A stretch of 30,132 nucleotides of DNA from Kiritimatiellia bacterium (GCA_028701555.1 JAQVQN010000001.1:1-30132), one strand, 5' to 3'; numbered from the stretch's first letter, positions 3 through 15,366 are shown. The notes: a model not told the origin generated them from the letters alone. Program-made: numbers and translations.

Positions 3-467
3 GCGCATTTCGCGACGGTTAAGAACTGCAACTATCTGCCGAACGTGATGATGAAGCGCGAGTCCGTGGACTGGGGCGTTGATTTCGTGGTGGGTTTTGA
101 CGATAACGGCATGATGACCGAGGGCGCGACCGAGAATTTCGGCATAGTCACGGGTGACGGCGAATTGCTTTTTCCGCGCATGGATACCGTGCTGGAGGGA
201 ACGACCATGATGCGTGTCGTGCACTTTGCGCACAATCTGGTTGAAAGCGGCGACTTGGCCAGGGTCGTTTTCCGTGACATCACAGAGGAAGATTTACGCG
301 CTGCCAGCGAGATGCTGGTTGTCGGTACGACCATAAACGTGGCGTCGGCGGTTGAGTACGAGGGCAATCCGGTCGGCAGCGGCAAGCCTGGGCTTGTCGG
401 TAGAACCCTGGACAGTCTTTTAAAGGCGGACATTGTTGGCAACCAGGAGTTGCGTGCGCCTTATTGA
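3..467 (+). CDS. Aminotransferase class IV family protein (branched-chain aminotransferase / ADC lyase-like), 5'-truncated by window edge
   Basis: The frame is open from base 3 (AHFATVKNCNYLPNVMMKRE...), including the PLP-lysine region K-x-x-N-Y. Class IV motifs EGATENFGIV, LEGTTM and EMLVVGTT are present. Stop TGA at 465-467. Confidence 0.8.
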   Translation, partial: AHFATVKNCNYLPNVMMKRESVDWGVDFVVGFDDNGMMTEGATENFGIVTGDGELLFPRMDTVLEGTTMMRVVHFAHNLVESGDLARVVFRDITEEDLRAASEMLVVGTTINVASAVEYEGNPVGSGKPGLVGRTLDSLLKADIVGNQELRAPY

Positions 468-480
468 TGGTGGTAGTGGT

Positions 481-960
481 ATGTCGGTATTTGACGAGGT
501 CATTTCTAATAGTCTTGTGCGGCTGGGTTTGACAGACCCGGACGGCGAGCAGGTTGTCAAGGCATTGATCGACGCGGCGGTCGATGAGGGCTTGTTGCCG
601 AACGAGCACAAGGATGAAGCGGTGCAGGCTGTGCTGAAACGAGAGCACAGTGCCTCCACGGCGCTGCCGGAAGGCATCGCCCTGCCGCACGGACGCACGG
701 AATGTGTCGATGACATCGTCTGCATGATCGGGATACACCCGCAGGGTGTAGCTTTTGGCGCGCCCGACGGCCTGCCAACACGTATCTTCGTGCTGTTGCT
801 GGTGCCGGCCAAGATAGGGTGCCGGCACATACATTTTCTCGCTAACTTGAGTCGCCGTCTGATGGAGCGGACAGTGTGCGATAGCATACTTGAGGCGAAA
901 ACTCGTGAAGCTGTGCTGCAGGCGGTATTGTGCTGCCCTTTTGATGGAGTGTGTGGATGA
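481..960 (+). CDS. PTS sugar transporter subunit IIA (EIIA-Ntr/Fru-type), stand-alone
   Basis: Motif [19 protein letters not shown] carries the phospho-His; also IFVLLLVP and [12 protein letters not shown]. Start placed at ATG 481 because the longer track ORF overlaps the upstream gene. Confidence 0.85.
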
Positions 961-3900
961 GCTTGTTGATTTTGCAGGGTCCTGAAGCTTTTTCTGGATT
1001 TAGGTTGGATGCTCTGAAGGACCGGATCAGCCCTTTATTGCCTGTGGAAGGTAGTGTCGATGTCGAGGCCCTGTTCGTTTATTTTCTGGATTTGAGCCGG
1101 GGGCCCGACAGTAGCGACCTCGAAAAATTCTGTACGCTTCTGGGCGCTGACGGCCGCGCCAAACCGCAAGGCGGTTTCTTCGTGACGCCCCGCAAAGGCA
1201 CGATCTCGCCATGGTCGTCCAAAGCCACGGACATATTCCGCAATTGCGGCCTGAACGATGTCATGCGCGTCGAGCGCGGCATACATTATAAAATCCGGGT
1301 CGAAGGGGCTGAGTTGGAATTGGCGGTTCTGCGGCCGGCATTGGGGGTTTTGCATGACCGCATGACCGAAGGCGTATATCTTGAGGCCGGTGATATTTTC
1401 GCGCATATGCCGCCAGCGCCCGGACGGGTTTTTGATGTGCTAGGCAAAGGGCGCGAGGCACTGGCTGAGGCTAACCGCATGATGGGGCTGGCGCTAAGCG
1501 ACGATGAGATAACCTACCTCTACGAAAATTTCGTAAAAGACGGACGCAATCCGACCGATACCGAGCTGGTGATGTTCGGCCAGGTGAACTCCGAGCATTG
1601 TCGACACAAGATTTTCAATGCCGGATGGGTGGTTGACGGCGAGCGCAAAGAGCTTTCGCTATTCCAAATGATCAAGAACACGCACGCGCTCAACCCGCGT
1701 GGGACGCTGGTGGCCTACAAGGACAACTCGGGCGTGGTGGAGGGTTTTCGCGCGCAGAGGTTCTCGGTTGATCCTGTGACTCAGGTTTACGGTTTCGAAG
1801 AAGATCAGATCGACATGCTGATGAAGGTGGAAACCCATAACCACCCGACGGCCATTTCACCTTTTCCAGGCGCCGCCACAGGTGTGGGAGGCGAGATACG
1901 CGACGAGGCTGCCACTGGCACGGGCTCCAAGAGCAAGGCCGGTCTGTCCGGGTTCATGGTCTCCAACCTGAACTTGCCGGATTTCGCGATGGAGTGGGAG
2001 CGGCGTCTGGCTGGTTTCCCGGCACGCTTGGCGACTCCGCTGGAGATCATGTTGGAGGGGCCGATCGGCGGCGCTGCTTTCGGCAATGAATTCGGACGGC
2101 CCCAGCTGTGCGGTTTTTTCCGCACTTATGAGGACGAGGTGGCGGGCTGCCAACGCGGTTATCACAAGCCGATCATGCTGGCGGGCGGCATGGGCAACAT
2201 CCGGAGAGGCCATGTGCATAAGCGGGAGGTTGCGCCAGGCGCGCTGATAGTGCAGATCGGCGGCCCCGCAATGCGTATCGGCCTCGGCGGTGGTGCGGCT
2301 TCATCGATGGCTACAGGCAGTAACGACGAGGCCTTGGATTTTGATTCGGTGCAGCGCGGCAACGCCGAGATGGAGCGCCGCTGCCAAGAGGTGATCGACG
2401 CTTGCGTGGCAATGGGGGATGCGAATCCGATCCTGAGCATTCACGACATCGGCGCGGGCGGTCTCTCCAACGGCTGTCCAGAGCTGGTGGAAAAGACGGG
2501 GGCCGATTTTGATTTGCGCGCGGTCCACAACGAAGAGCGCTCGATGAGCCCGATGGAAATTTGGTGCTGCGAGGCGCAGGAGCGTTACGTGCTGGCGGTG
2601 AACCCGGAGAACCGCGCCCGATTCGAGGCGATTTGCACGCGCGAGCGTTGCCCCGTGGCCTTCATCGGCGTGGCGCGTGATGACCGGCGTTTGGTGCTGA
2701 AAGACAGCCACTTTCAGAACCGCCCTATCGACATGGACATTGATGTTCTGCTGGGAAAGCCGCCGCGCATGGTGCGTGACGTCAAGCGTGTTGCAGCGAT
2801 GCCGCCGCAGTTGGATTTGTCGGGTATCGAGCCTGCCGAGGCTCTGGAGCGTGTGCTGCGGCTGCCTGCCGTGGCGGACAAGACTTTTTTAGTGACAATC
2901 GCCGACCGCACCGTGACGGGCATGGTGCACCGCGACCAGATGGTCGGCAAGTATCAGTTGCCTGTGGCCGACAACGCAGTGACCATCACCGGCTATTGTT
3001 CTTACAGTGGCGAGGCTATGGCTGTGGGCGAGCGTACGCCAGTGGCATTGATCGACGCGCCTGCCGCCGGACGCATGGCTGTGGCAGAAGCCCTGACCAA
3101 TATCGCGGCGGTGAACATCGGTGCGATCGGCAACGTCAAGCTCTCGGCGAACTGGATGTGCGCGTGCGGAGAAGAGGGCGAGGATGCGGCACTGTTCGAT
3201 ACGGTTCGTTCCGTCGGCATGGATTTTTGTCCGCGGCTTGGGGTGTCGATACCTGTTGGCAAGGATTCGCTCTCAATGCGGACGGTATGGCACGATGTGG
3301 ACGGCAACCCGCGGCGGCAGGTCGCTCCTTTAAGCCTGATTGTCAGCGCTTTCGCGCCGGTACGTGACGTTCGCGGAGGGGTCACCCCGGATCTTAAACC
3401 GGGCAAGAGTTCTTTGCTGCTAGTTGATTTAGGTCAGGGACGTAATCGTCTCGGCGCCAGTGCCTTGGCGCAGGTCTACAATCAGGTCGGCGACACGCCG
3501 CCGGACGCGGACGAGCCGGAGCTGCTGCGCGCGTTTTTCGACGCCGTGCAAGAGCTGGTGGCGTCGGGGCTGCTGCTGGCGTATCATGACCGTTCCGACG
3601 GCGGCGCGGTGGTTACATTGGCTGAGATGGCTATATCCGGCGGGCGCGGCGTGTCAGTAGAACTGCCAGGTAAAGACACGCTGGCTGCTCTATTCAGTGA
3701 AGAAGCCGGGGTAATCATACAGGTCGCTGATGACAAGTTGGAAGCGGTGTTGGAGGTTGTGCGCCGTAATGGTTTGGGCGAGGTATGCGGCGTGATCGGC
3801 AAGCCGACGGACAACAAGGAATTTTCAGTTTTAGTGCAAGGAAAGTCGGTGATAAACACTACGCTGACAAATTTGCGTCGGACGTGGTCGGCTTTGACCT

Positions 3901-4817
3901 GCCGCATGCAGACTTTGCGTGACAACCCGGTGTGTGCACGTCAGGAGTACGACAACGCGCTTGACGAAGACGACCCCGGCATGTCGTTCAAGCTTTCCTA
4001 TGATCCAGAGATCGCGACTGTCCAAGATATGCGGCAGAGGCCGCGGGTGGCGGTTCTGCGCGAGCAGGGGGTCAATGGGCATGTCGAGATGGCTGCGGCA
4101 TTCACGCTTGCCGGTTTTGACGCTGCGGATGTACACATGACCGATCTGCTGGAAGGGCGTGTTGAACTAGACGAAGGTTTCAGCGGTCTGGTCGCCTGCG
4201 GCGGTTTCTCTTATGGCGATGTCTTGGGGGCCGGTTCAGGTTGGGCCCGCAGCATTCTTTACAATGCGCGCATGGCCGAGATGTTCAGGTGTTTCTTCGC
4301 GCGTCCAGAGACATTTACGCTGGGGGTGTGCAACGGTTGCCAGATGGTTTCGCAGTTGAAAGGTATCATACCGGGCGCTGAACACTGGCCGGCTTTCCAG
4401 CGGAACATATCGGAGCAGTTCGAAGCGCGTTACGCCACGCTTGAGGTTATGGATTCGCCATCGGTGCTGCTGCGCGGCATGGCCGGTTCGCGCATACCGG
4501 TAGCGGTGGCGCACGGCGAAGGGTTGGTAGCCTTCGATAAGCCTGAGGACGCAGGGCGTGTGACGAAGGCTTTACGCTTTGTCGACGGATGCGGCGGGGC
4601 TACGGAGCGTTATCCTTGGAACCCAAATGGCTCGGCTGGCGGCCTGACGGGTTTCACTTCGCGGGACGGGCGGGCGACGATTATGATGCCGCATCCGGAG
4701 CGTGGTTTCCGCGCGGTGCAGCTATCGTACCGGCCGGAGGGGCTTTTTACAGGCGAGGCCGGTCCGTGGATGCGGTTCTTTAGGAATGCATATGATTTCG
4801 CGTTGGGGAAGAAGTAG
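957..4817 (+). CDS. purL: Phosphoribosylformylglycinamidine synthase, large single-chain type
   Basis: Motifs [47 protein letters not shown] and SIHDIGAGG, plus the glutaminase domain LGVCNGCQM...MMPHPER. ATG 957 overlaps the EIIA stop (ATGA). Confidence 0.97.
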
Positions 4818-4844
4818 GGAAGAGTTAAGAGGGAAGTGGTGGAG

Positions 4845-6791
4845 ATGGCAAAGAATATTGTTGAGAAGATTTTGGGAGCGCATCTGGTTGAGGGAGAGCT
4901 GAAGCCCGGGGCTGACATAGCTATCCGCATTGACCAGACATTGACGCAGGACGCCACGGGCACGATGGCATACCTTCAATTCGAGAGTATGGGACTTGAG
5001 CGGGTCAAGGCGGATTTGGCGGTGAGTTATGTTGACCACAACACCATTCAGGTTGGGTTCGAGAACGCCGACGACCACGTTTATCTGAAGAGCGTGGCGA
5101 AACGATACGGCATCATCTTCTCGCGTCCCGGCAACGGCATCTGTCACCAGTTACATCTGGAGCGGTTCGGCAAGCCCGGCACCACCCTGCTGGGCAGCGA
5201 CTCACACACGCCTACGGGCGGCGGCATTGGCATGGTGGCGATCGGCGCGGGCGGGATTGACGTGGCGGTGGCGATGGGGGGCGGGGCTTTCAATCTGGTT
5301 TGCCCTCGCGTCACGCTGGTGCGCTTGAGCGGCAGGCTGCCGTCCGGGGTTTCGGCCAAAGACGTGATTCTTAAAGTGCTTTCGATTTACGGCACCAAAG
5401 GCAATGTGGGTCGTGTGCTCGAGTATGGCGGTTCCGGCTTGTCCGGACTGGGAGTGCCGGCGCGTGCGACAATCACCAACATGGGAGCAGAGCTGGGCGT
5501 GACGACATCTGTGTTCCCTAGCGATGAGATTACCCGCGCTTTCCTGCGCGCGCAAGGGCGCGAGGCGGATTGGTGCGGGCTAGCTGCCGATGCGGGGGCA
5601 GAGTATGAGGACGTGTTGGATATCGACTTGGGTGCGCTGGAGCCTATGGCCGCCTGCCCGCATTCGCCGGGCAACATCAAGACCGTGGCTGAACTGGCGG
5701 GCACGAAAGTTCATCAGGTGCTGATCGGATCTTGCACAAATTCATCATACCGCGATCTGAAGACAGTGGCGCTGATGCTGCGCGGTAAGAAGATACACCC
5801 TGATGTCGAGGTGGGAGTGGCGCCAGGTTCGCGCCAGGTGGTCAACATGCTGGCGCAAGAGGGCTTGCTGGGCGAGCTGGTTGCGGCAGGAGTCAGGATA
5901 CTTGAGAACGCATGCGGGTTCTGCATCGGCAACCATATGTCGCCGGGCTCGAACGCGGTCAGCCTGCGCACCAGTAACCGTAATTTCGAAGGGCGGTCAG
6001 GCACCCTGTCGGCTGGAATATATCTGGTCAGTCCAGAAACCGCCGCTGCCGCGGCCTTGACCGGCAAATTCACTGATCCGCGCGGATACGCTTTGGCGGA
6101 AGAGGTAGCCGAGCCGGAGCGCTTTGATGTTGACGACAGCATGTTTCTGTTCGCGGAGACGGCGGGCCAAGGCGTGCCTGGCACAGAGATTGTGCGCGGG
6201 CCTAACATCGGCGAGGCGCCGGCGGGCAAGCCCATGCCGCAGGATCTTGACGGGGTGGCGGTGGTCAAGGTTGGCGACAAGATCACGACAGACCATATCA
6301 TGCCGGCCGGCGCCCGGCTTAAATACCGGTCAAATGTGCCGCAGTACTCTAAGTATGTCTTTGAAAACGTGGACGCTGGTTTTCACGCGGCGGCGGCGGC
6401 CAACCGTGACTCCGGACTGCATAACGTGATCGTGGCCGGCGAGAGTTACGGACAAGGGTCGAGTCGCGAGCATGCTGCAATGTGTCCTATGTATCTTGGG
6501 GTCAAGGCATTGATAGCCAAAAGCATTGAGCGCATACACTTGGCTAATCTGATTAATTTCGGCATAGTCCCGTTCATTTTTGATGCCCCGGCGGATTATG
6601 ACAAAATCGCCAAAGGCGACCGGCTGGTGATCCGTGATTTACGCGGCGCAGTGGGTGGCAGCGGCCATGCCGCAGTTGAGAATTTGACACAGGGAAATAC
6701 TTTCAAGGTCACGGCGTGTCTGACGCCGCGGCAAAAAAAGCTGCTTATAAACGGTGGGCTTTTGTCTGCCGTGGCAGCCGGTCAAGCGTGA
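4845..6791 (+). CDS. Aconitate hydratase (short ~650-aa aconitase family)
   Basis: Motifs DQTLTQDATGT, GSDSHTPT, IGSCTNSS, ACGFCIGN (4Fe-4S cysteines), RTSNRNFEGR, swivel domain ITTDHIMP and YGQGSSREHA. Substrate (citrate vs homolog) cannot be fixed from sequence. Confidence 0.88.
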   Translation: MAKNIVEKILGAHLVEGELKPGADIAIRIDQTLTQDATGTMAYLQFESMGLERVKADLAVSYVDHNTIQVGFENADDHVYLKSVAKRYGIIFSRPGNGICHQLHLERFGKPGTTLLGSDSHTPTGGGIGMVAIGAGGIDVAVAMGGGAFNLVCPRVTLVRLSGRLPSGVSAKDVILKVLSIYGTKGNVGRVLEYGGSGLSGLGVPARATITNMGAELGVTTSVFPSDEITRAFLRAQGREADWCGLAADAGAEYEDVLDIDLGALEPMAACPHSPGNIKTVAELAGTKVHQVLIGSCTNSSYRDLKTVALMLRGKKIHPDVEVGVAPGSRQVVNMLAQEGLLGELVAAGVRILENACGFCIGNHMSPGSNAVSLRTSNRNFEGRSGTLSAGIYLVSPETAAAAALTGKFTDPRGYALAEEVAEPERFDVDDSMFLFAETAGQGVPGTEIVRGPNIGEAPAGKPMPQDLDGVAVVKVGDKITTDHIMPAGARLKYRSNVPQYSKYVFENVDAGFHAAAAANRDSGLHNVIVAGESYGQGSSREHAAMCPMYLGVKALIAKSIERIHLANLINFGIVPFIFDAPADYDKIAKGDRLVIRDLRGAVGGSGHAAVENLTQGNTFKVTACLTPRQKKLLINGGLLSAVAAGQA

Positions 6792-6847: not shown

Positions 6848-8674
6848 ATGAGCGATAACGAAGAGGCGAAGCCTGCAGAGCAGGACAACGGCGGGATTGT
6901 GCTGGATCTGAATTTTGCCCCTAGTTGGGCGCGTAATTCACCTGAAGCGCACATCAAGCGTTTACAGAACGAACGGTATGACCATGAATACGCGGACAAC
7001 CGGCCGCGGCGTCGCGGGAATGCCGACGGACCTGAGCGCCGTTCGCAAAAGCGTGATTTTAATGACGCGCCTCGTCGCCCTTTTGAACGCAGCAAGCCGC
7101 GCCGGGAAAATGATCGGGTCAAGAGCAGTGAAATGCGGCGTCCTGAGACGCGCGGAGCGTTTGCCGACTTAAAGGTTGAGACTCAGTCTTACGACAACCA
7201 ACGCCGCGGGCAGGGTGATTATCGTCCTGCCAGGCAGGAGGCACCGCAACTGCCGTTGGAGATTCGCGTTTTGCCCGAGCAGAAAGCGCTCGGGTCGGTG
7301 ATCAGGCGCATACAGACTTCGCACAGGGCATTCCCGTTGCGTGACATAGCCTGGCTGTTCTTGGACAATCCGGCCTCGTGCCTAGTTCGCATAGAGCCGA
7401 TCAAAGACCAGCAGTTGGATTTGTTCCAATGCAAGGTATGCGGTATGCCGGCGCTGTCTGAGGAAGAGATCAGAGCGCATCTGCTGAGCCGCCACATGGA
7501 GGATTATTTCGATGTCGAGGAGGTTGATTGCGAGCCGCCGACCGGATCGTTCGTTTGTGTGGCCAAGTGTGGCTTGAGCGGGGCATTGCTGGGGCCGCCC
7601 AATCATCATGGATTCAACGCAAAGGTTAACGAGATGTTGCGGACTCGTTATGCGAACATGAGCGAGGAGGCGTATCGCTCGCGCATTGAGACCGTGCGTG
7701 ATGCCGAGGTGATCGAGCAATGGCGTCAGCAGTGCACCAAGAAGTTTGTCTACCGTCGCAAGGGGGTGTCAGAGGTCGGTGGCGAGCCGCCTGTTGCTTC
7801 AGAGACTGATGTAGAGGGTGCAGAGCCGCAGGAGGCTCCAGAAGAAGCGCCGCGTCCGCCGCCGATGGAACGAGAAATCGCTGAGCTGGTTTTCACGCGC
7901 GAGATTGTGCCGGCGCAGATCGCGAGCGTGCGGCACATGGTCTGCACTGCGGCGGTGGCGATGCAGACGACGAGTCGCCCGTTATATTTTGCGCTGAAAG
8001 ACGTGTTGCAGCGCGAGCGGCGTTTTCCGGCTTCGCTGTTTTTTGCCCTACGTGGCGCTTTCCGCCACCGCAAGCTTCATCTTTTCCGAGTGAATGACGC
8101 GCGCGGGCCTGATTTTGTGATGCTGAAACCGGCGGTGGCTTTGGATCCGGCGCATACGGTTCAGACCTTGCGCGAGATTCTGACCTACGTCAACGAGCAT
8201 CCCGCTTGCACAAAGGCTGAAATGGTGATAGCCCTTGCCAGCGGTGATGAGGCCAAGATCAAAGAGGCGCTGGTACAGTTGGCGTGGCTGGTCGAGAAGG
8301 GCCATGTGATAGAGTATTACAACGAAGTCCTGAGTGTCCCGCTGGAATTCCCGGCCTTTCGTGTGTTGCCTGGCGAGAAGCAGTCGGGTGGCAGGAAGGT
8401 TGAAGCTCCGGCTCATCATGCTAAAAAGCCGAAGGACCAGCCTGAGCAGCCACTGGCCGATTTGCCGGAAAAGTCGCCCGCGACACAAAGCGAGCAGGCT
8501 CAAGCAGAGCAAGCGGTGGCTGGTTCTGGCGAAGTGACGCTTGCGGCCGAGACGGAGCTTGTGGCATCGGACACCGTTGAGGAAGCGCCTGAAAAGAAGG
8601 TTGCGGCTAAAGACGCTGCGGAAGCGGTGTCCTCAGACATTCCGGCGGATCAGGACCCGGCGCCCGTCGACTGA
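6848..8674 (+). CDS. Hypothetical protein with C2H2-type zinc-finger motif, predicted C-terminal winged helix and disordered termini
   Basis: 608-aa ORF with own promoter. Arg-rich N-terminus, CKVC-x12-H-x4-H motif, a helix-helix-helix-beta pattern ending WLVEKGHVIEYY, and an acidic low-complexity tail. Confidence 0.8.
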   Translation: MSDNEEAKPAEQDNGGIVLDLNFAPSWARNSPEAHIKRLQNERYDHEYADNRPRRRGNADGPERRSQKRDFNDAPRRPFERSKPRRENDRVKSSEMRRPETRGAFADLKVETQSYDNQRRGQGDYRPARQEAPQLPLEIRVLPEQKALGSVIRRIQTSHRAFPLRDIAWLFLDNPASCLVRIEPIKDQQLDLFQCKVCGMPALSEEEIRAHLLSRHMEDYFDVEEVDCEPPTGSFVCVAKCGLSGALLGPPNHHGFNAKVNEMLRTRYANMSEEAYRSRIETVRDAEVIEQWRQQCTKKFVYRRKGVSEVGGEPPVASETDVEGAEPQEAPEEAPRPPPMEREIAELVFTREIVPAQIASVRHMVCTAAVAMQTTSRPLYFALKDVLQRERRFPASLFFALRGAFRHRKLHLFRVNDARGPDFVMLKPAVALDPAHTVQTLREILTYVNEHPACTKAEMVIALASGDEAKIKEALVQLAWLVEKGHVIEYYNEVLSVPLEFPAFRVLPGEKQSGGRKVEAPAHHAKKPKDQPEQPLADLPEKSPATQSEQAQAEQAVAGSGEVTLAAETELVASDTVEEAPEKKVAAKDAAEAVSSDIPADQDPAPVD

Positions 8675-9656: not shown

Positions 9657-9866
9657 TGCCCCCAGCGTTACAGTTTTGTAATCACAGGAATGCGGAGGCG
9701 ACAGGCATGGGCAGGGAGTAGAGGCAAGCCAGCCGCCCGGGGCTCTGGGCGAAAACAGAGGGGTAACGAGAGTTGAACGATTACGAGCAAGATTATCGAG
9801 AAATTTGGAGGAGTAGGTGTTATATTCGGGCGGGGTTGGCTAATATTTAACAGAGAGAGGTGTGTT

Positions 9867-10400
9867 TTGCTGAGCAGGAAACAAAAAATCCGCGTTGAAG
9901 TGTTTGTCACGCGCCTGACCGAGGCGCAGTTTGACCTGCATTCCTATATCACATATCTGCTTGGCAACATCACTGACGCCTATGATGTGCTGCAAGAAAC
10001 CAATCTGATCCTGTGGCAGAAGGCGAAAACCTATGACGCCGCTAAACCCTTCTTGGCTTGGGCGCGCAGCATTGCCTATTTTCAGGCATTGAAGTTCCGC
10101 AAGTCACGTTCTCGTGAACGTCTTGTGTTCGATAACGACTTGCTTGAGACTGTGGCTGCCCGAGCCGAGGATGAGACGGGGCACCAGCACCTGCTTGACA
10201 AGATGGAGCTGTGCTTTGAGCGGCTGTCGCCAGAGCAACGCGCAGTGATGTTCGCCAAGTATCAGGAGGGTGATTCTCTGGCGGTGATCGCCGAAAAGAT
10301 GGGGTGTTCCGTCGCTTCGGTTGGCATGCTGCTGATGCGCATACGCAGGAAATTGGCCAAGTGCATACGTGAGGCAGTTGCCCGGGAGGCCACCGCATGA
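9867..10400 (+). CDS. ECF RNA polymerase sigma-70 factor (Rhodopirellula/Verrucomicrobium type)
   Basis: Region 2 DAYDVLQETNLILWQK...FLAWARSIAYFQAL; region 4 LSPEQRAVMFAKY...LAVIAEKMGCSVASVGMLLMRIRRKL. TTG start 6 nt after GAGAGAGG. Confidence 0.92.
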   Translation: MLSRKQKIRVEVFVTRLTEAQFDLHSYITYLLGNITDAYDVLQETNLILWQKAKTYDAAKPFLAWARSIAYFQALKFRKSRSRERLVFDNDLLETVAARAEDETGHQHLLDKMELCFERLSPEQRAVMFAKYQEGDSLAVIAEKMGCSVASVGMLLMRIRRKLAKCIREAVAREATA

Positions 10401-12964
10401 TAACCTCCCGCGAAGAGTTTGATGCATTGCTAGCGGCGGTCATCGGGTTAGAAGCGGATGCTGCCGAAATCACCCGTTTCAACGCGCTGCTGCGTGAGCA
10501 GCCGGATCTGCTGGAGTTATATTTCGACCAGATGCGCGTTCACCTGTTGGCCGACAGGATGCTGCGGCACGCGGTACGGGCGTTGCCAGATACGGTTGGG
10601 TTTGTCGATGCTGTGGGTGGTGTCCAGCTCCGAGAAACTACGCCGGTGCAATCTGCGGTTAGAGATGCCTTGGTCAAAAGCGTTCACATGACTGGGTGGC
10701 GGCGGGGCGCACGTTTCATGAAGATTGCGGCTGCTGCTGCGGTGCTGGCGCTGGCGGGTGCCGGGCTGTGGCTGGCAGCGGATGACTGGCGACTGGCGAC
10801 CGGCGACGGGCGGTTCTCGCAAGAACTCCCGTCAGTCGCCAGTCGCCTGTTGCCAGTCGAGATCCTCCATCACTGGGGCTCATGCAACCTTGAGGTGCCG
10901 GAGCGTCTGCCGGGGACTTTGCGCATGACCAACGGGCGGATCAAGGCGCGGCTGTCGTCCGGCATCGAGCTGATCCTTTTCGGCCCGTTCGAGATGGAGA
11001 TCAAGACCTCCAAGGAGGCGCGGCTGGTGTCCGGTCGCATGCTGGCCGACATCCCCGCCAAGGACGGCGGCTTCACGCTGCGCACGCCCGACCTGGAGAT
11101 GTGGGACAACGGCGCGCTCTTCAGCGTGGCGGTCACGGAAGGGGGCTCGGACATCTTCGTGTTCAAGGGCGAGGTGCAGGTGGTCGAGTCCGACGGCGAG
11201 CCTGTGGACATCTGCCGCACAGGCGAGGGCGCACGGGTGCGGCGCGACAACAGAAGCGCGTTCAAGGTTGCGGCCGACTGGCCATACGCTTTAGAGATGC
11301 TGGCTCGGGTAGAGCAGAAGGGCGCGCTCAACGATCCCGAGGACGCGCTGTGGGTGGCCTCGCGCGTCTCCGACATCTGGACCGAGCGCTGGATGCCCAA
11401 GGTGGTCAAGCGCCCCAAGCCAGTGCCGGGCCTGCGCGGAGGTCGGGAGTCGGCAGTGGCAGTCGGCAGCGGCAGTCGCCAGTCGGCAGGCGGGGGCCGG
11501 CAATCTGCGTCCGGGGTCCTGAGTCCTGGGTCCGCAACAATCGCAAGTAAGGGCGCGGCCTTGCACCCGTCTGACAATCTCACTAGCGGCGGGGTGGCCC
11601 CTGCCGCAGTAAAAACCATAGCGGCCTTGACGCCGCAGAACGAGGAGGAAGCGATGAAGGCAACAGCGAAGACAGCGGCGGCCGTTACGGCTGCGGCCCT
11701 TATGGGCGCGGGCGCGGCGTGGGCGGTGCCCACGGTCTCGAACGTCAATATGACTCAAATGGCAAACAGCCGGATGGTGCAGGTCACGTATGATCTGGCA
11801 GGCGAGAACGCTATCGTTACGCTTTCGATCGAGACTAATGGCGTGGCGATACCCGACAGCGCGGTGACGACGCTGTCAGGCGACGTGTGCAAGGAGGTCG
11901 TTGCCGGAACCGGCAAGACCATCTACTGGAACGCGGGTGCGGACTGGCCTGAAAACTTGACCGAGAGCGCCAAGGCACGCGTGACAGTGTGGTCGTTAGA
12001 CGCGCCGCCGCAGTACAGCGCGATTGATGTCGCCGCAGGTTCTGCCGCCTCGTCATATCCGGTCTTCTACTATAACAGCGACGAGGCTGTGCCTGGCGGT
12101 GTCACTAACGAAATCTACAAAACCATCCGCATACTTCTGCGCAAGCTGCCGCCGACCGGCGGCGCGGGCTTTATGATGGGCTCGCCGACAACCGAAGCGT
12201 TCCGTTCTCCAAATGGAGAACGCGAGAACTGGCATAATGTGATCCTTAACAATGCGGTCTACATTGGTGTATATGAGATCACACAGAGCCAGTGGTATCA
12301 GGTCATGGGCACCTGGCCGTCCCACTTCAACAATAGCGATTACCGTCTGGCGCGTCCGGTTGAAAAGGTGACATACAACGACATCCGTGGTTTTTCGGCC
12401 GGCGCGGGCTGGCCGGGCAGTGACGCAGTCGACGGCACCTCCTTCATGGGGCGCATCCGTTCAAAGACCGTTGTCGCAGGCTTCGACCTCCCCACCGATG
12501 CTCAGTGGGAGTATGCCTGCCGGGCGGGAAAATCCAGCGCACTGAACGACGGCACACTTAACATCACCAACACAGACTCCGACGCGCAGTTGGATATGCT
12601 GGCCCGCTACAAGTTCAACGACGGCTGGTGGTGGAACGGCTCAACTTGGGTTACTGCCCCGCAGAACAGCAGCGCGGAGAACGGCACCGCCATCGTCGGC
12701 TCCTACGCGCCTAACGCCTGGGGGCTCTACGACATGCACGGCAATGTTTACGAGTGGTGTCTGGACTGGTACACACCACTGCTGGGATTCACTACCGTAA
12801 CTGACCCGGTCGGTCCTTCAAGCGGCGAAGACGGCAAGCGCGTTTTCAGAGGTGGGGCGTTTGATCAACCGGCTGCCGGGTGCCGCTCCGCTTATCGCAC
12901 AAGGGCCACCCCAGACTCATCTTGGGAAAGCGGCGGCTTCCGACTTGCGCGGACATTGCCGTAA
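10397..12964 (+). CDS. FecR-family anti-sigma factor fused in frame to a secreted Ig-like + FGE/SUMF1-fold protein
   Basis: ATGA overlap with the sigma gene. Cytoplasmic anti-sigma N-terminus, TM segment (KIAAAAAVLALAGAGLWLAA), FecR strands (GFTLRTPDLEMWDNGALFSVAV...VFKGEVQV), linker, then FGE motifs FMMGS, LPTDAQWEYACRAG, WGLYDMHGNVYEWCLDWY, GGFRLA. Confidence 0.85.
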   Translation: MITSREEFDALLAAVIGLEADAAEITRFNALLREQPDLLELYFDQMRVHLLADRMLRHAVRALPDTVGFVDAVGGVQLRETTPVQSAVRDALVKSVHMTGWRRGARFMKIAAAAAVLALAGAGLWLAADDWRLATGDGRFSQELPSVASRLLPVEILHHWGSCNLEVPERLPGTLRMTNGRIKARLSSGIELILFGPFEMEIKTSKEARLVSGRMLADIPAKDGGFTLRTPDLEMWDNGALFSVAVTEGGSDIFVFKGEVQVVESDGEPVDICRTGEGARVRRDNRSAFKVAADWPYALEMLARVEQKGALNDPEDALWVASRVSDIWTERWMPKVVKRPKPVPGLRGGRESAVAVGSGSRQSAGGGRQSASGVLSPGSATIASKGAALHPSDNLTSGGVAPAAVKTIAALTPQNEEEAMKATAKTAAAVTAAALMGAGAAWAVPTVSNVNMTQMANSRMVQVTYDLAGENAIVTLSIETNGVAIPDSAVTTLSGDVCKEVVAGTGKTIYWNAGADWPENLTESAKARVTVWSLDAPPQYSAIDVAAGSAASSYPVFYYNSDEAVPGGVTNEIYKTIRILLRKLPPTGGAGFMMGSPTTEAFRSPNGERENWHNVILNNAVYIGVYEITQSQWYQVMGTWPSHFNNSDYRLARPVEKVTYNDIRGFSAGAGWPGSDAVDGTSFMGRIRSKTVVAGFDLPTDAQWEYACRAGKSSALNDGTLNITNTDSDAQLDMLARYKFNDGWWWNGSTWVTAPQNSSAENGTAIVGSYAPNAWGLYDMHGNVYEWCLDWYTPLLGFTTVTDPVGPSSGEDGKRVFRGGAFDQPAAGCRSAYRTRATPDSSWESGGFRLARTLP
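10784..10858. repeat. 75-bp imperfect palindrome built from GACTGGC heptamers, in frame inside the FecR gene
   Basis: gactggc gactggc gaccggc gacggg cg gttct CGCA agaac t cccgtc agtc gccagtc gcctgtt gccagtc; begins with GACTGGC and ends with its reverse complement. Confidence 0.8.
11448..11533 (+). repeat. Short tandem 6/7-mer repeats in the FecR-FGE linker
   Basis: agtcggc agtggc agtcggc agcggc agtcgcc agtcggc from 11448, and gtccggg gtcctga gtcctgg gtcc (11509-11533). Confidence 0.75.
11654..12964 (+). CDS. Putative nested in-frame gene: secreted FGE/SUMF1-fold (C-type-lectin-fold) protein, 436 aa
   Basis: GAGGAGG (11642-11648), then ATG at 11654 in the FecR frame (codon 420), then signal peptide MKATAKTAAAVTAAALMGAGAAWA|VPT with an A-x-A cleavage site. 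Confidence 0.6.
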   Translation: MKATAKTAAAVTAAALMGAGAAWAVPTVSNVNMTQMANSRMVQVTYDLAGENAIVTLSIETNGVAIPDSAVTTLSGDVCKEVVAGTGKTIYWNAGADWPENLTESAKARVTVWSLDAPPQYSAIDVAAGSAASSYPVFYYNSDEAVPGGVTNEIYKTIRILLRKLPPTGGAGFMMGSPTTEAFRSPNGERENWHNVILNNAVYIGVYEITQSQWYQVMGTWPSHFNNSDYRLARPVEKVTYNDIRGFSAGAGWPGSDAVDGTSFMGRIRSKTVVAGFDLPTDAQWEYACRAGKSSALNDGTLNITNTDSDAQLDMLARYKFNDGWWWNGSTWVTAPQNSSAENGTAIVGSYAPNAWGLYDMHGNVYEWCLDWYTPLLGFTTVTDPVGPSSGEDGKRVFRGGAFDQPAAGCRSAYRTRATPDSSWESGGFRLARTLP

Positions 12965-12974
12965 GTGTGCGCAT

Positions 12975-13010
12975 CAGGGATCGTCCGCAGGGCCGATCCC
13001 TGTGTCTTTT
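12975..13010 (+). terminator. Hairpin after the FecR-FGE gene (weak terminator or mRNA-stabilising stem)
   Basis: CAGGGATCG-tccGCAGggc-CGATCCCTG (perfect 9-bp outer stem) followed by TGTCTTTT. Confidence 0.55.
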
Positions 13011-13047
13011 AACCTGTCTTTCCTTCAAAAGTCCACACGAGGACGCA

Positions 13048-15366
13048 ATGATGAAATTCCTATGCCACGGGTTGGTGCTTTCTGCCGCCTTGGCTTTGCC
13101 CGTGTCCGGATCGCCGGGAAAGTCTGCCGGGACTTTTAGCGACATCAACGCCCTGTTGTCTTGCAGTCCACGCGATGACCTGATCGGTCCGGAAATGTGG
13201 ACCGCCTGGCGCAATGAGCTGGTTTTCGACAACGGCAACAGCACCGCCTTTATCGGTGGCCAGCTTCCGCATTACGCCTGGTCGCCGCCAAAACCCGGAC
13301 TTAACGGGCATCTGCATATTTTGCACGGCACTGCCTACACTGATCCCATCCAGATCGAGATAACAGAGATCGACGGCGAAAATAGCGCCGTGCTGCAGCT
13401 TGTGCCCACGCGCAATACTTGGACTCCGGCGCTTTTGACCACGTATTACCGCAGTAGGCCTAATACCCTTGGAACGGATTACATCAAGAGCGGTGGCTGT
13501 GCGCTAAAAGAGACAAAATGCATAACAAGAGATAACGTCTTCATCTCTGAAATGGAAATCAGCAACTGCAGCCCGGTTCCGCGAGTGTACAATATATGTG
13601 TATCCAGTAAGATGCCCGCGCTGCCTGTAGTGAAAACTGACAAAGGCGCGGCCATGTCAGGCTCTTTTGCGTTCGACACTTTTTCGTTCGGCAGAAAAAC
13701 GCCGCGCAAAGGTTTTTCAGCCATGGCGATTCAAGCCGAGGCGTTCACTTGGCGGATCATGCTGTCGCCCTGGGAAAAAAAGACGGTTCGCTATGCTTTT
13801 GCCGTCGACGGCTTGTCAGCCGAAAACGCTTTAACCAAAGTGCAAGCCGCGCTAGCTGATGCGGCGGTATTCAACCGCAATGTGTCGGCATTCAACCGTT
13901 GGTTCGCCGACAACGTACCGGAACTGCTGCTGGATAATCCAGACTTGCTGAAAATGTATTATTACCGCTGGTTTGTTGTATACCGCAGCATTCATGAAGC
14001 CCGGCGGCTGCTTCCGGATCACGAATACCCGCGTCCGGTCATGTATGAAAGCCCCGCCGGCCCTTGGTATGGATGCGTGATCGGGCTGCCTGTGCCGATG
14101 CAAATACTTGAAGCCGCTTGGCTGCGTGACTCCACGATAGGCTGGAACCATATCTTGAATTGGGCCGAAAAAGTCCACGGTTACCGCGGCTATGTTCAAT
14201 TTACGCCGATGGCTGTTTGGAAGTTTTACAGGAATCACCCGAATAAAACATATTTAAACGCAGTTTTTGAAGCCATGAAGGCTTTTGCTCTTGAAAAGGC
14301 GAAACCACCGTTTGATCGCCTGCCCGTGCAGCGGAGCAGTTGGGAACCCGGTGCCGAATACTCGCCAAATTTCTATCAGTTCACTGCTCCCCCGTGGGAT
14401 TACCGCAACGACATGCAATTCTATAAAACCGCGACCAACCTGTATGTGGCCTCCCTGATACGTCTGGACACGGCCGGATACACGGCCGGATCCCTTTCGG
14501 CAACAAGCAAGATGGCAGGCCTGCTGGGAAAGGAAGAAGACCGGGCCGAGATGCGGCACGCCTACGAAAAAATGCTGTCATTAATCAAGCGTGACCACTG
14601 GGACCAGAAACTCGGAATGTTCCTGGCCGCCGACCCAGCCAGCGGCCAACTGGCGGATCAGGCGGCCTGCTATGACAGTTTTGTGCCCTTCATGTGGGGC
14701 ATGGCACAGGAGCCGCAGTACCAGATGGCTTTTGACAAGCTGTTCGATCCCGCGTGGTTCTGGGACGAGTTCCCGTTCACCACCGCAGCCAAAAACTGCC
14801 CCATGTATTTTGACGGCAACGCGGTCGTGGGCCCGACCGAAGCGTCCTTAACCAAACCAAGCTATTACGGATGCAGTTGGAACGGGCCGACATGGAATTA
14901 CGCCAACACACTGTACGCGGAGGCGTTGGGTCAGGGTGCGCTACAACGTGCCGAGCTGCGGGACAAATGGGTTGATTTCTTTATCCGCTGGAGTGATATG
15001 CATTTCTTGTATGGCGACAAATCCGTGCCGTGCGCGACGGAGCACCACCGCCCGAATGACGGGGCGCGGTTTGGCCGACCCGCCGAGTATTTTCACAGCT
15101 CCTGGCTAGATCCGTTTTATTCCTATTGGTGCGGCATCCGCCTCGGGGACGACTTACGGACACTGACCTTTGATCCCTTTACCCGAGAGCCGTTCACGCT
15201 TCACATGGTCAAAATCGCGGACGGAATGTATACGTTTGAGCAGACCTCGCCTGATGCCGACGGTCAGCGTATGTTGCGTGTCATGGATGAGCAGGGCCGC
15301 GTGCTTGGCTCGGCGCGCGGTCAGCTCACAATCAATATTACGGGCTCTTCACCCGCAAAATTATAA
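13048..15366 (+). CDS. Secreted six-hairpin glycosidase-like protein (MGH1/GH63/trehalase-like (alpha/alpha)6 barrel)
   Basis: GAGGA SD before ATG 13048; signal-like N-terminus MMKFLCHGLVLSAALALPVSG. beta-rich N-domain, then helical region with MYYYRWFVVYRS, HWDQKLGMF, WDEFPFTT and SWNGPTWNYAN. Family is recognised by pattern only. Confidence 0.6.
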   Translation: MMKFLCHGLVLSAALALPVSGSPGKSAGTFSDINALLSCSPRDDLIGPEMWTAWRNELVFDNGNSTAFIGGQLPHYAWSPPKPGLNGHLHILHGTAYTDPIQIEITEIDGENSAVLQLVPTRNTWTPALLTTYYRSRPNTLGTDYIKSGGCALKETKCITRDNVFISEMEISNCSPVPRVYNICVSSKMPALPVVKTDKGAAMSGSFAFDTFSFGRKTPRKGFSAMAIQAEAFTWRIMLSPWEKKTVRYAFAVDGLSAENALTKVQAALADAAVFNRNVSAFNRWFADNVPELLLDNPDLLKMYYYRWFVVYRSIHEARRLLPDHEYPRPVMYESPAGPWYGCVIGLPVPMQILEAAWLRDSTIGWNHILNWAEKVHGYRGYVQFTPMAVWKFYRNHPNKTYLNAVFEAMKAFALEKAKPPFDRLPVQRSSWEPGAEYSPNFYQFTAPPWDYRNDMQFYKTATNLYVASLIRLDTAGYTAGSLSATSKMAGLLGKEEDRAEMRHAYEKMLSLIKRDHWDQKLGMFLAADPASGQLADQAACYDSFVPFMWGMAQEPQYQMAFDKLFDPAWFWDEFPFTTAAKNCPMYFDGNAVVGPTEASLTKPSYYGCSWNGPTWNYANTLYAEALGQGALQRAELRDKWVDFFIRWSDMHFLYGDKSVPCATEHHRPNDGARFGRPAEYFHSSWLDPFYSYWCGIRLGDDLRTLTFDPFTREPFTLHMVKIADGMYTFEQTSPDADGQRMLRVMDEQGRVLGSARGQLTINITGSSPAKL

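Follow-up and report, generated by a model that had tools for sequence, protein, structure and literature searches.

Regulators of the FecR/PupR type, as in the FecIRA and PupIRB systems, are encoded directly behind the gene of an extracytoplasmic function (ECF) sigma factor and consist of a cytoplasmic head, a single transmembrane (TM) helix and a periplasmic FecR fold. A locus with this layout is found in a 30,132-nucleotide stretch of DNA from a Kiritimatiellia bacterium (GCA_028701555.1, JAQVQN010000001.1:1-30132; called here the window, with positions counted from its first letter), which comes from a landfill metagenome bin of 2.69 Mb (452 contigs, 85% complete). In this locus, the anti-sigma gene runs without a stop codon, as a single open reading frame (ORF) of 855 codons, into what appears to be a complete gene for a secreted protein. 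It differs from the FecR/PupR systems in three respects: no TonB-dependent transducer or receptor was found among the ten largest neighboring genes scanned (951 to 22012); a long tether and a swappable cargo stand in place of the C-terminal signaling domain; and the sigma factor is of the PVC (Planctomycetes, Verrucomicrobia, Chlamydiae) type TIGR02989, not of the FecI type. To our knowledge, an internal start with a signal peptide has not been described for FecR. We estimate at about two in three the probability that this one ORF gives rise both to a membrane-tethered sensor and to a free secreted copy of its outer domains.

The RsgI anti-sigma-I factors of Clostridium thermocellum also occur as multiple paralogous sigma/anti-sigma pairs, and their C-terminal extracytoplasmic modules (carbohydrate-binding or glycoside hydrolase modules) resemble the secreted proteins under their control, according to two reports (PMC10328401, PMC4711584). 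A disordered extracytoplasmic linker is found in the RsgI of B. subtilis as well (PMC9732909). RsgI factors, however, belong with the SigI family and have another anti-sigma fold, and their free proteins come from separate genes, whereas here the same frame would give the free copy.

In-frame internal initiation is documented in bacteria, where alternative starts have been mapped with retapamulin (bioRxiv 10.1101/520783) and N-terminal proteoforms have been reviewed (PMC11005335, PMC13515050). As in those cases, an in-frame Shine-Dalgarno (SD) sequence and start codon inside an ORF would let one mRNA also give a protein that lacks the N-terminal part. Unlike in those cases, the short form would be exported while the long form would be a membrane regulator, and the arrangement is family-wide and cassette-like. 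We know of no classical case (IF2, ClpB, CheA, PBP1b) in which internal initiation creates a new Sec signal peptide. Free-standing secreted proteins of Kiritimatiellia and Lentisphaerae that combine an immunoglobulin (Ig)-like domain with a domain of the formylglycine-generating enzyme (FGE) fold show the same domain order after their signal peptide, but their genes are independent. No description of the design was found in the literature on internal initiation or signal peptides in anti-sigma/FecR proteins, on Kiritimatiellia ECF systems, or on PVC FecR-LamG proteins.

Evidence for a translation start inside the ORF

The features of the locus are listed in Table 1. The sequence-only reading of this DNA had placed a perfect GAGGAGG at codon 420, followed by 5 nt and an ATG. 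The motif, the gap and the ATG are real, but codon 420 is the ATG itself, and the SD lies upstream of it (codon stretch GAGGAGGAA; a synonymous version with a weakened SD reads GAAGAAGAA). The predicted signal peptide is MKATAKTAAAVTAAALMGAGAAWA, followed by VP. Signal peptides were judged here by rules of thumb (n-region, h-region, and residues at -3 and -1), and this one divides into an n-region, MKATAKT, with two lysines; an uncharged h-region of about 15 residues, AAAVTAAALMGAGAA; and A-W-A at -3 to -1 before V. By these rules, which are also passed at about 30 junctions, it is a predicted Sec signal peptide, in agreement with the one claimed earlier.

Homologs were searched for among 5.8 billion proteins with the full 855-aa protein as the query, and the wider subfamily was delimited by running a FecR-module profile against 1.84 billion cluster representatives with a cut-off of E≤1e-30. 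About 25 homologs of 780–830 aa cover the whole query at 41–67% identity and are fused in frame; many full-length homologs hold both PF04773 and PF03781. The profile defines a sharply bounded subfamily of 47 clusters, the next matches being at 1e-24. About 30 of the 47 representatives have the in-frame Met and signal peptide, while about 10 are fused without them.

An SD (a match of at least 5 nt, spaced 3–12 nt from the start codon) precedes 15 of 18 junction starts versus 23 of 244 (9.4%) of the remaining in-frame ATGs in these ORFs (Fisher 1e-11, a P value that overstates independence because the paralogs and homologs compared are related). Genome-wide, it precedes 4.3% of 2515 deep in-frame ATGs. 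The residues encoded by the SD differ among homologs (EE, KE, QE, EG, RE) while the GGAG core is retained, which argues for a constraint at the nucleotide level. The 43 nt around the junction starts are also distinct in composition, with 45% A and 46% GC versus 21% A and 58% GC at control ATGs; an A-rich, lower-GC composition is usual for initiation regions.

Met420 is nearly invariant in the homolog alignment (A1) and is followed by an Ala-rich segment ending in AxA. The sole subfamily representative with a non-Met residue before an intact hydrophobic core (P0156, on the 6.1-Mb contig OW818680.1) has a Val at this position, encoded by a GTG that follows GGAGA at a distance of 5 nt. Start codon and hydrophobic core are present together in 29 representatives and absent together in 10, and no representative has the core without a start codon. 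One related locus (L020) has remained fused and retains a linker motif, while its SD, its A-rich context and its h-region have all decayed. Column conservation in the class with FGE-fold cargo is 0.75 for Met plus signal peptide, compared with 0.67–0.78 for the folded domains and 0.40 for the linker. Folding of the RNA over 11570–11690 leaves the SD and ATG in an open loop (z = -2.1), which is no more than suggestive.

Five lines (the SD, the A-rich context, the GTG case, the joint retention or loss, and a detached cassette, C130, described below) make the junction look like a real translation start. The conservation of an SD and a start codon within the ORF appears to exceed what the protein sequence requires, and the earlier proposal of two products from one ORF finds comparative support at the nucleotide level of the junction.

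The segment could instead act within the protein. Only the full-length form would then be made, with the signal-peptide-like segment serving as a membrane-associating hinge, or as a site at which signal peptidase or a site-1 protease would shed the cargo domain and so set off regulated proteolysis of the regulator. Processing in the periplasm ahead of cleavage by RseP is reported for anti-sigma factors of the FecR and RsgI types (PMC8144685, PMC10328401). The conservation of the segment (0.75) is also unusual for a signal peptide. However, a role at the protein level leaves unexplained the GGAG core 5–9 nt upstream, the varying residues that it encodes, the A-richness, and the replacement of Met by GTG alone. 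The segment also seems too weakly hydrophobic for a stop-transfer helix, at a mean of +4.2 versus +1.8 kcal/mol for the TM helix (approximate values), and a second TM helix at the junction was rejected on the same comparison. Moreover, fusions that lost the segment stay intact. A segment that follows a periplasmic domain faces signal peptidase in the wrong orientation, and this would hold for the long form. Shedding by a peptidase at AWA had been offered as an alternative in the sequence-only reading; the AxA site is present, but the GGAG, GTG and A-rich evidence makes it less likely, and we regard a purely protein-level role as unlikely.

Recurrence in paralogs and homologs

The same bin encodes at least 10 FecR-type paralogs, and 8 of the 9 that are readable through the junction show a FecR module, linker, SD-like motif, ATG and signal peptide (Table 1). 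The junction pattern repeats in 11–12 external loci, from metagenome-assembled genomes (MAGs) titled Kiritimatiellia, 'Lentisphaeraceae' and Verrucomicrobia, and in a second genome of the same family. Behind this common junction stand FGE-fold, LamG, PATR, BspA-type leucine-rich repeat, or 233-aa cargo domains; the class labels were assigned by regular expression and are imperfect, some rows being mislabeled 'other'. An internal SD, ATG and signal peptide in frame with varied cargo, the recurrence suggested as a check on the original claim, is thus found in paralogs, external loci and subfamily representatives alike.

A split version of the gene was not found among the 47 representatives, the short ones being cuts at contig ends; one of these (P0152) stops exactly at …CAACAGGAGG. 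Likewise, no stop codon lies between the FecR module and the SD in the 47 representatives or in about 27 loci with complete linkers, so that the linker stop in homologs that would have spoken against the earlier claim did not turn up. The two broken cases, both on low-quality MAG contigs, are L021, frameshifted on a contig of 1.1 kb, and L015, whose signal peptide contains a TAG.

These homologs bear on the trivial explanation that a stop codon or a frameshift between two genes was lost from this MAG by an error of assembly or sequencing. The fragmentation of the bin, the repeat-rich linker and the breaking of public contigs at the junction, caused by its being shared among paralogs, would fit such an artefact. 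Against it, dozens of independent assemblies from other samples show the same in-frame fusion, the stretch 11487–11648 recurs unchanged in a contig assembled from an activated-sludge run, and public contigs report no indel in the linker. The read-level check of the junction that had been called for, made on Logan contigs, is weakly supportive through this one identical run, but these contigs are of limited length and end where the paralogs have the SD in common. We consider an artefact very improbable; judged from these assemblies, the fusion is not a lost-stop accident.

Among distant FecR proteins, a convincing signal peptide at the junction was found in 1 of 76 (P0265). Generality across FecR proteins was accordingly rejected, the feature being specific to the subfamily and a few others. 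P0265, a protein of 1884 aa outside the subfamily, reads …QEEQN-MRAMAKGVVTLGMTAALSAVALNTHA 3' of the FecR domain, so that the nested-start design is at least sporadic beyond it.

Linker, long form and cassette exchange

Linkers were walked in frame at 17 loci (909 codons; L021 and L015 were counted separately). The ORF frame has no stop there, whereas the alternative frames have 25 and 21, which indicates that the long form is under selection as well. Conserved peptide motifs in the linkers depend on the class of cargo that follows: PPPPVPGLRG precedes FGE-type domains, and AWRIRER…PFxKxAWVRP precedes the 233-aa domain. Each class of cargo also includes fusions that have lost the signal peptide, so the tethered cargo works as a design by itself. 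In the FGE class, the linkers contain tandem heptapeptide-like repeats (…SAVGSRQ / SAIGNRQ…; window 11440–11520, A1 columns 420–470) with GGCAGTC-type repeats in the DNA. Public contigs show linker length variants, with joints that skip 69 and 97 nt.

When FecR modules are placed on a tree, the types of cargo are intermingled, even within well-supported, short-branched clades, and the expectation that each class forms a clade was rejected. P0135 and P0048 share about 90% identity through the FecR module, and all similarity ends abruptly at …RYEPEE, beyond which linker, signal peptide and cargo differ; in the cytoplasmic head, the two have an identity of only about 30%. Likewise, P0124, P0022, P0123 and P0133 combine FecR modules of ~90% identity with unrelated cargo cassettes and heads of ~30% identity. 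Highly similar FecR modules between differing heads and cargo imply that sequence was exchanged, by gene conversion or as cassettes, with a sharp breakpoint at either edge of the FecR module. The mosaic pattern suggests that the exchangeable unit comprises linker, SD, ATG, signal peptide and cargo. A second exchange point apparently lies after the Ig-like domain: in A1, P0014 and P0023 are nearly identical to P0034 and P0037 in the N-terminal half, signal peptide and Ig-like domain, and the FGE-like subtypes differ (…PPLYCAVDV… versus …PPQVMVIDL…).

One cassette stands alone as a gene, detached from any FecR gene. On C130 (minus strand; oriented 1380–2270), a stop codon is followed by a linker remnant (KKMRIGNGIPFQKTAWVRAS), GGAGG, an ATG, a signal peptide and the 233-aa domain, and there is no FecR gene upstream. 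Free-standing paralogs of both cargo types occur in the same genome, with N-terminal signal peptides placed as in the junction; three of them (C353, C151, C317) have a signal peptide and then Ig-like and FGE-fold domains. A different rearrangement is seen on C305 (L044, minus strand; oriented open frame 329–4936), where the ECF sigma factor and an anti-sigma/LamG gene share one frame with no stop between them and a single TGA breaks the FecR module; this may be a pseudogene, a sequencing error or a sigma–anti-sigma fusion.

The mosaic architecture, with its break right after the FecR module, and the free-standing paralogs are also what would be expected if anti-sigma genes repeatedly captured genes for secreted proteins, through recombination or the loss of a stop codon, leaving the SD, ATG and signal peptide as non-functional relics that have yet to decay. 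The signal-peptide-less fusions in every class would then look like decay, and because the loci are mosaic, arguments from the FecR tree on the age of single fusions are weakened, which keeps this explanation alive. However, in the FGE class 24 of 26 sequences (41–67% identity) retain the Met and the signal peptide while the adjoining linker has diverged beyond alignment, the survey of linkers yielded no intermediate with a stop before the SD, and the linkers are specific to fused genes, none having been found 5' of the free-standing paralogs. For these reasons, we hold relics to be quite unlikely, and a start site in use remains the better account of the junction.

Domains of the long protein

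An AlphaFold2 (AF2) model of the 855-aa protein, built on 26 homologs and compared with known folds by Foldseek, agrees with the domain order proposed earlier. The head gives weak profile matches to RslA 3HUG, RseA 8Z6G and MucA 6IN7 (E 0.04–0.08); zf-HC2 is matched weakly in 4 of 22 members and is also found in the paralog P0125. The most hydrophobic 19-mer of the TM helix, IAAAAAVLALAGAGLWLAA, has an approximate insertion energy of about -0.2 kcal/mol. In the periplasmic part, the Pfam FecR match is weak (residues 206–261, E 8e-4, under the cut-off), but a beta-rich module (155–332; predicted local distance difference test, pLDDT, 80–90) is matched by Foldseek, with a probability of 1.00, to 6OVK (PupR, periplasmic domain) and to 4M0N (BDI_1681, an anti-sigma factor). 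A helical head, presumed to be the anti-sigma domain, and the TM helix and FecR domain previously recognized from the sequence are therefore present, as are the Ig-like domain (pLDDT about 90) and the FGE fold. Disorder in the model spans 334–443 and includes the signal-peptide helix.

The FGE-sulfatase family PF03781 is matched at residues 592–852 (1e-33), and Foldseek relates the FGE-like part to TvpA (2Y3C, the best fold match) and to human FGE (1Y1E, E 1e-9). In an alignment to the human FGE chain 2AFT (a C336S mutant), a single query Cys is matched, which we take to be the equivalent of Cys341 of the catalytic pair Cys336/Cys341, and the position of residue 336 has no Cys. Since one cysteine of the pair is missing, the domain probably serves as a binding module or a different enzyme rather than as an FGE, and is better filed under the SUMF1/EgtB/PvdO fold.

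TvpA, from Treponema denticola, is a variable protein of a diversity-generating retroelement (DGR). A second copy of 12860–12964 that could be a template repeat was found neither in the 85%-complete genome nor near homologs. The sole clear reverse transcriptase of the genome, on C429, has a YRDD motif and is flanked by repeats without differences at adenine positions. A DGR variable protein was thus rejected: there is no template repeat, and the reverse transcriptase is not DGR-like. Its 535-aa frame lies between two 152-nt direct repeats of 94% identity (about 8059–11808 of C429), one of them in the 3' end of a 1037-aa ORF, and could belong to a defense island.

Table 1 Features of the ECF sigma/anti-sigma locus and its same-genome paralogs (positions in the window; contigs for paralogs)
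Feature	Position or contig	Strand	Basis or remark
Promoter-like motif 5' of the ECF sigma gene, TTGTnAGATTT-N13-CCATAT	9816–9849	+	Gibbs motif
ECF sigma factor gene, 177 aa	9867–10400	+	TIGR02989 1.6e-40; Sigma70_r2 and r4_2
Single 855-codon ORF, anti-sigma sensor and cargo in frame, no internal stop	10397–12964	+	Full-length homologs, 100% coverage
Cytoplasmic helical head, residues 1–61, presumed anti-sigma domain	10397–10579	+	AF2 helices 4–16, 22–34, 37–61; pLDDT 80–88
Transmembrane helix, residues 105–130	10709–10786	+	AF2 helix 105–130
Periplasmic FecR-fold module, residues 150–341, conserved W..ER..P at its end	10844–11419	+	Foldseek 6OVK, 4M0N
Disordered repeat-rich linker, residues 342–419, hypervariable, always open in frame	11420–11653	+	pLDDT <30
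Internal Shine-Dalgarno GAGGAGG, codons 416–418 read E-E-E	11642–11648	+	5 nt (AAGCG) before ATG
Internal ATG (codon 420, 11654–11656) and 24-residue Sec-type signal peptide, predicted cleavage between AWA and VP	11654–11725	+	Rule-based
Ig-like beta-sandwich, residues 446–533	11732–11995	+	AF2 strands, pLDDT 86–93
FGE-fold (SUMF1/EgtB/PvdO family) domain without full FGE cysteine pair	12014–12961	+	PF03781
Terminator-like hairpin just 3' of the ORF	12986–13004	+	Consensus match; no commoner than in shuffled sequence
Paralogs with Ig-like and FGE-fold cargo	C261, C121		Same genome
Paralogs with PATR or beta-helix-like cargo	C277, C136, C232		Same genome
Paralog with LamG-like cargo	C305		Same genome
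Paralog with unnamed domain of about 233 aa	C325		Same genome
Paralog running off contig in cargo	C276		Same genome

Operon, promoter and neighboring genes

The sigma factor belongs to NCBIfam TIGR02989, the Rhodopirellula/Verrucomicrobium type. Its TGA (10398–10400) overlaps the ATG of the anti-sigma gene (10397–10399) as ATGA, and the coordinates agree with the stop-free ORF and coupling described earlier. The adjacent, co-oriented sigma/anti-sigma pairing also occurs in 28 related loci. A motif built by Gibbs sampling from 24 sigma-gene upstream regions (the window and 23 related loci) has its best site in the window, at 22.7 bits, just 5' of the sigma gene and is probably an autoregulated ECF promoter. 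A T-run precedes the motif 5' of the ECF sigma genes of the family.

A scan with the position-weight matrix found no promoter of this type inside the ORF or linker (best score 3.1 bits versus 22.7), and no sigma-70-like promoter was found in the linker; an internal promoter in the linker was rejected on these grounds. With neither type of promoter in the linker and a hairpin after the ORF, the short product would come from the operon mRNA. The hairpin, of a kind no commoner here than in shuffled sequence, suggests that the operon consists of the sigma and anti-sigma/cargo genes only. Prediction of a regulon by scanning the genome with the matrix was dropped as AT-biased and circular, the top matches being sigma genes and the others uninterpretable.

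The ten scanned neighbors include housekeeping genes of purine synthesis and the tricarboxylic acid (TCA) cycle (purL, aconitase, purN), a glycoside hydrolase, a GDSL esterase and a response regulator. Next 3' of the operon, past the hairpin, lies a gene for a secreted protein of 773 aa that carries an MGH1-like glycoside hydrolase domain (13045–15366, plus strand), followed by the GDSL esterase gene. A 608-aa ORF amid the purine/TCA genes (6848–8674, plus strand) has no Pfam match at E≤0.001.

Discussion

In the mechanism that we propose, a promoter conserved in the family would drive an operon of two genes, one for an ECF sigma factor and one for an anti-sigma factor whose frame continues, uninterrupted by a stop, into a complete gene for a secreted protein. 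Translation from 10397 would give an 855-aa inner-membrane protein in which a tether joins the sigma-binding head, TM helix and FecR-fold module to a ligand-binding end made of the Ig-like and FGE-fold domains. Translation of the same mRNA from the internal SD and ATG (11642/11654) would give a 436-aa precursor, which would be exported by Sec and cut after AWA to release the outer domains as a free protein of 412 aa. The sensor would be the tethered copy, and the free copy would be the only visible output of the operon, in which case input specificity and product would be the same domain. The sequence-only reading had made the cargo a direct sensor that needs no TonB-dependent receptor. The context fits this, none being encoded in the ten genes scanned; the free copy, for its part, may act as supposed here.

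Several points weigh against the production of both forms. What supports them is comparative and lies at the nucleotide level, and it draws on related sequences. The genome makes moderate use of SD sequences, at 18–34% of candidate starts. About a quarter of the subfamily has no internal start and signal peptide, which means that the free copy would be dispensable for the sensor. The loci are mosaic, so some start sites could be young imports from free-standing genes. Finally, public contigs at the junction are fragmented, and none bridges 11648 with 31 nt on each side.

A bolder extension, which is possible but doubtful, is that sensor and product are one and the same by design. Cassettes of tether, ribosome-binding site, start codon, signal peptide and cargo would swap behind a recombining FecR module, such that one recombination would provide a new secreted protein together with a matching sensor that switches on its own operon. 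The free copy might then feed back by competing for ligand or by binding the tethered copy.

As to annotation, gene callers give a single 800-aa 'formylglycine-generating enzyme family protein', so that the nested gene and the anti-sigma function both go unrecorded. Should the two products be made, the locus would be a compact circuit in which one domain, encoded once, serves as the tethered sensor and as the secreted output of an autoregulated ECF operon. It would be a clear, family-wide addition to the few bacterial genes whose internal start alters the cellular destination of the product. Cassette swaps would also explain how ECF systems, of which this 2.7-Mb bin holds at least 10, have multiplied and diversified in polymer-degrading PVC bacteria.

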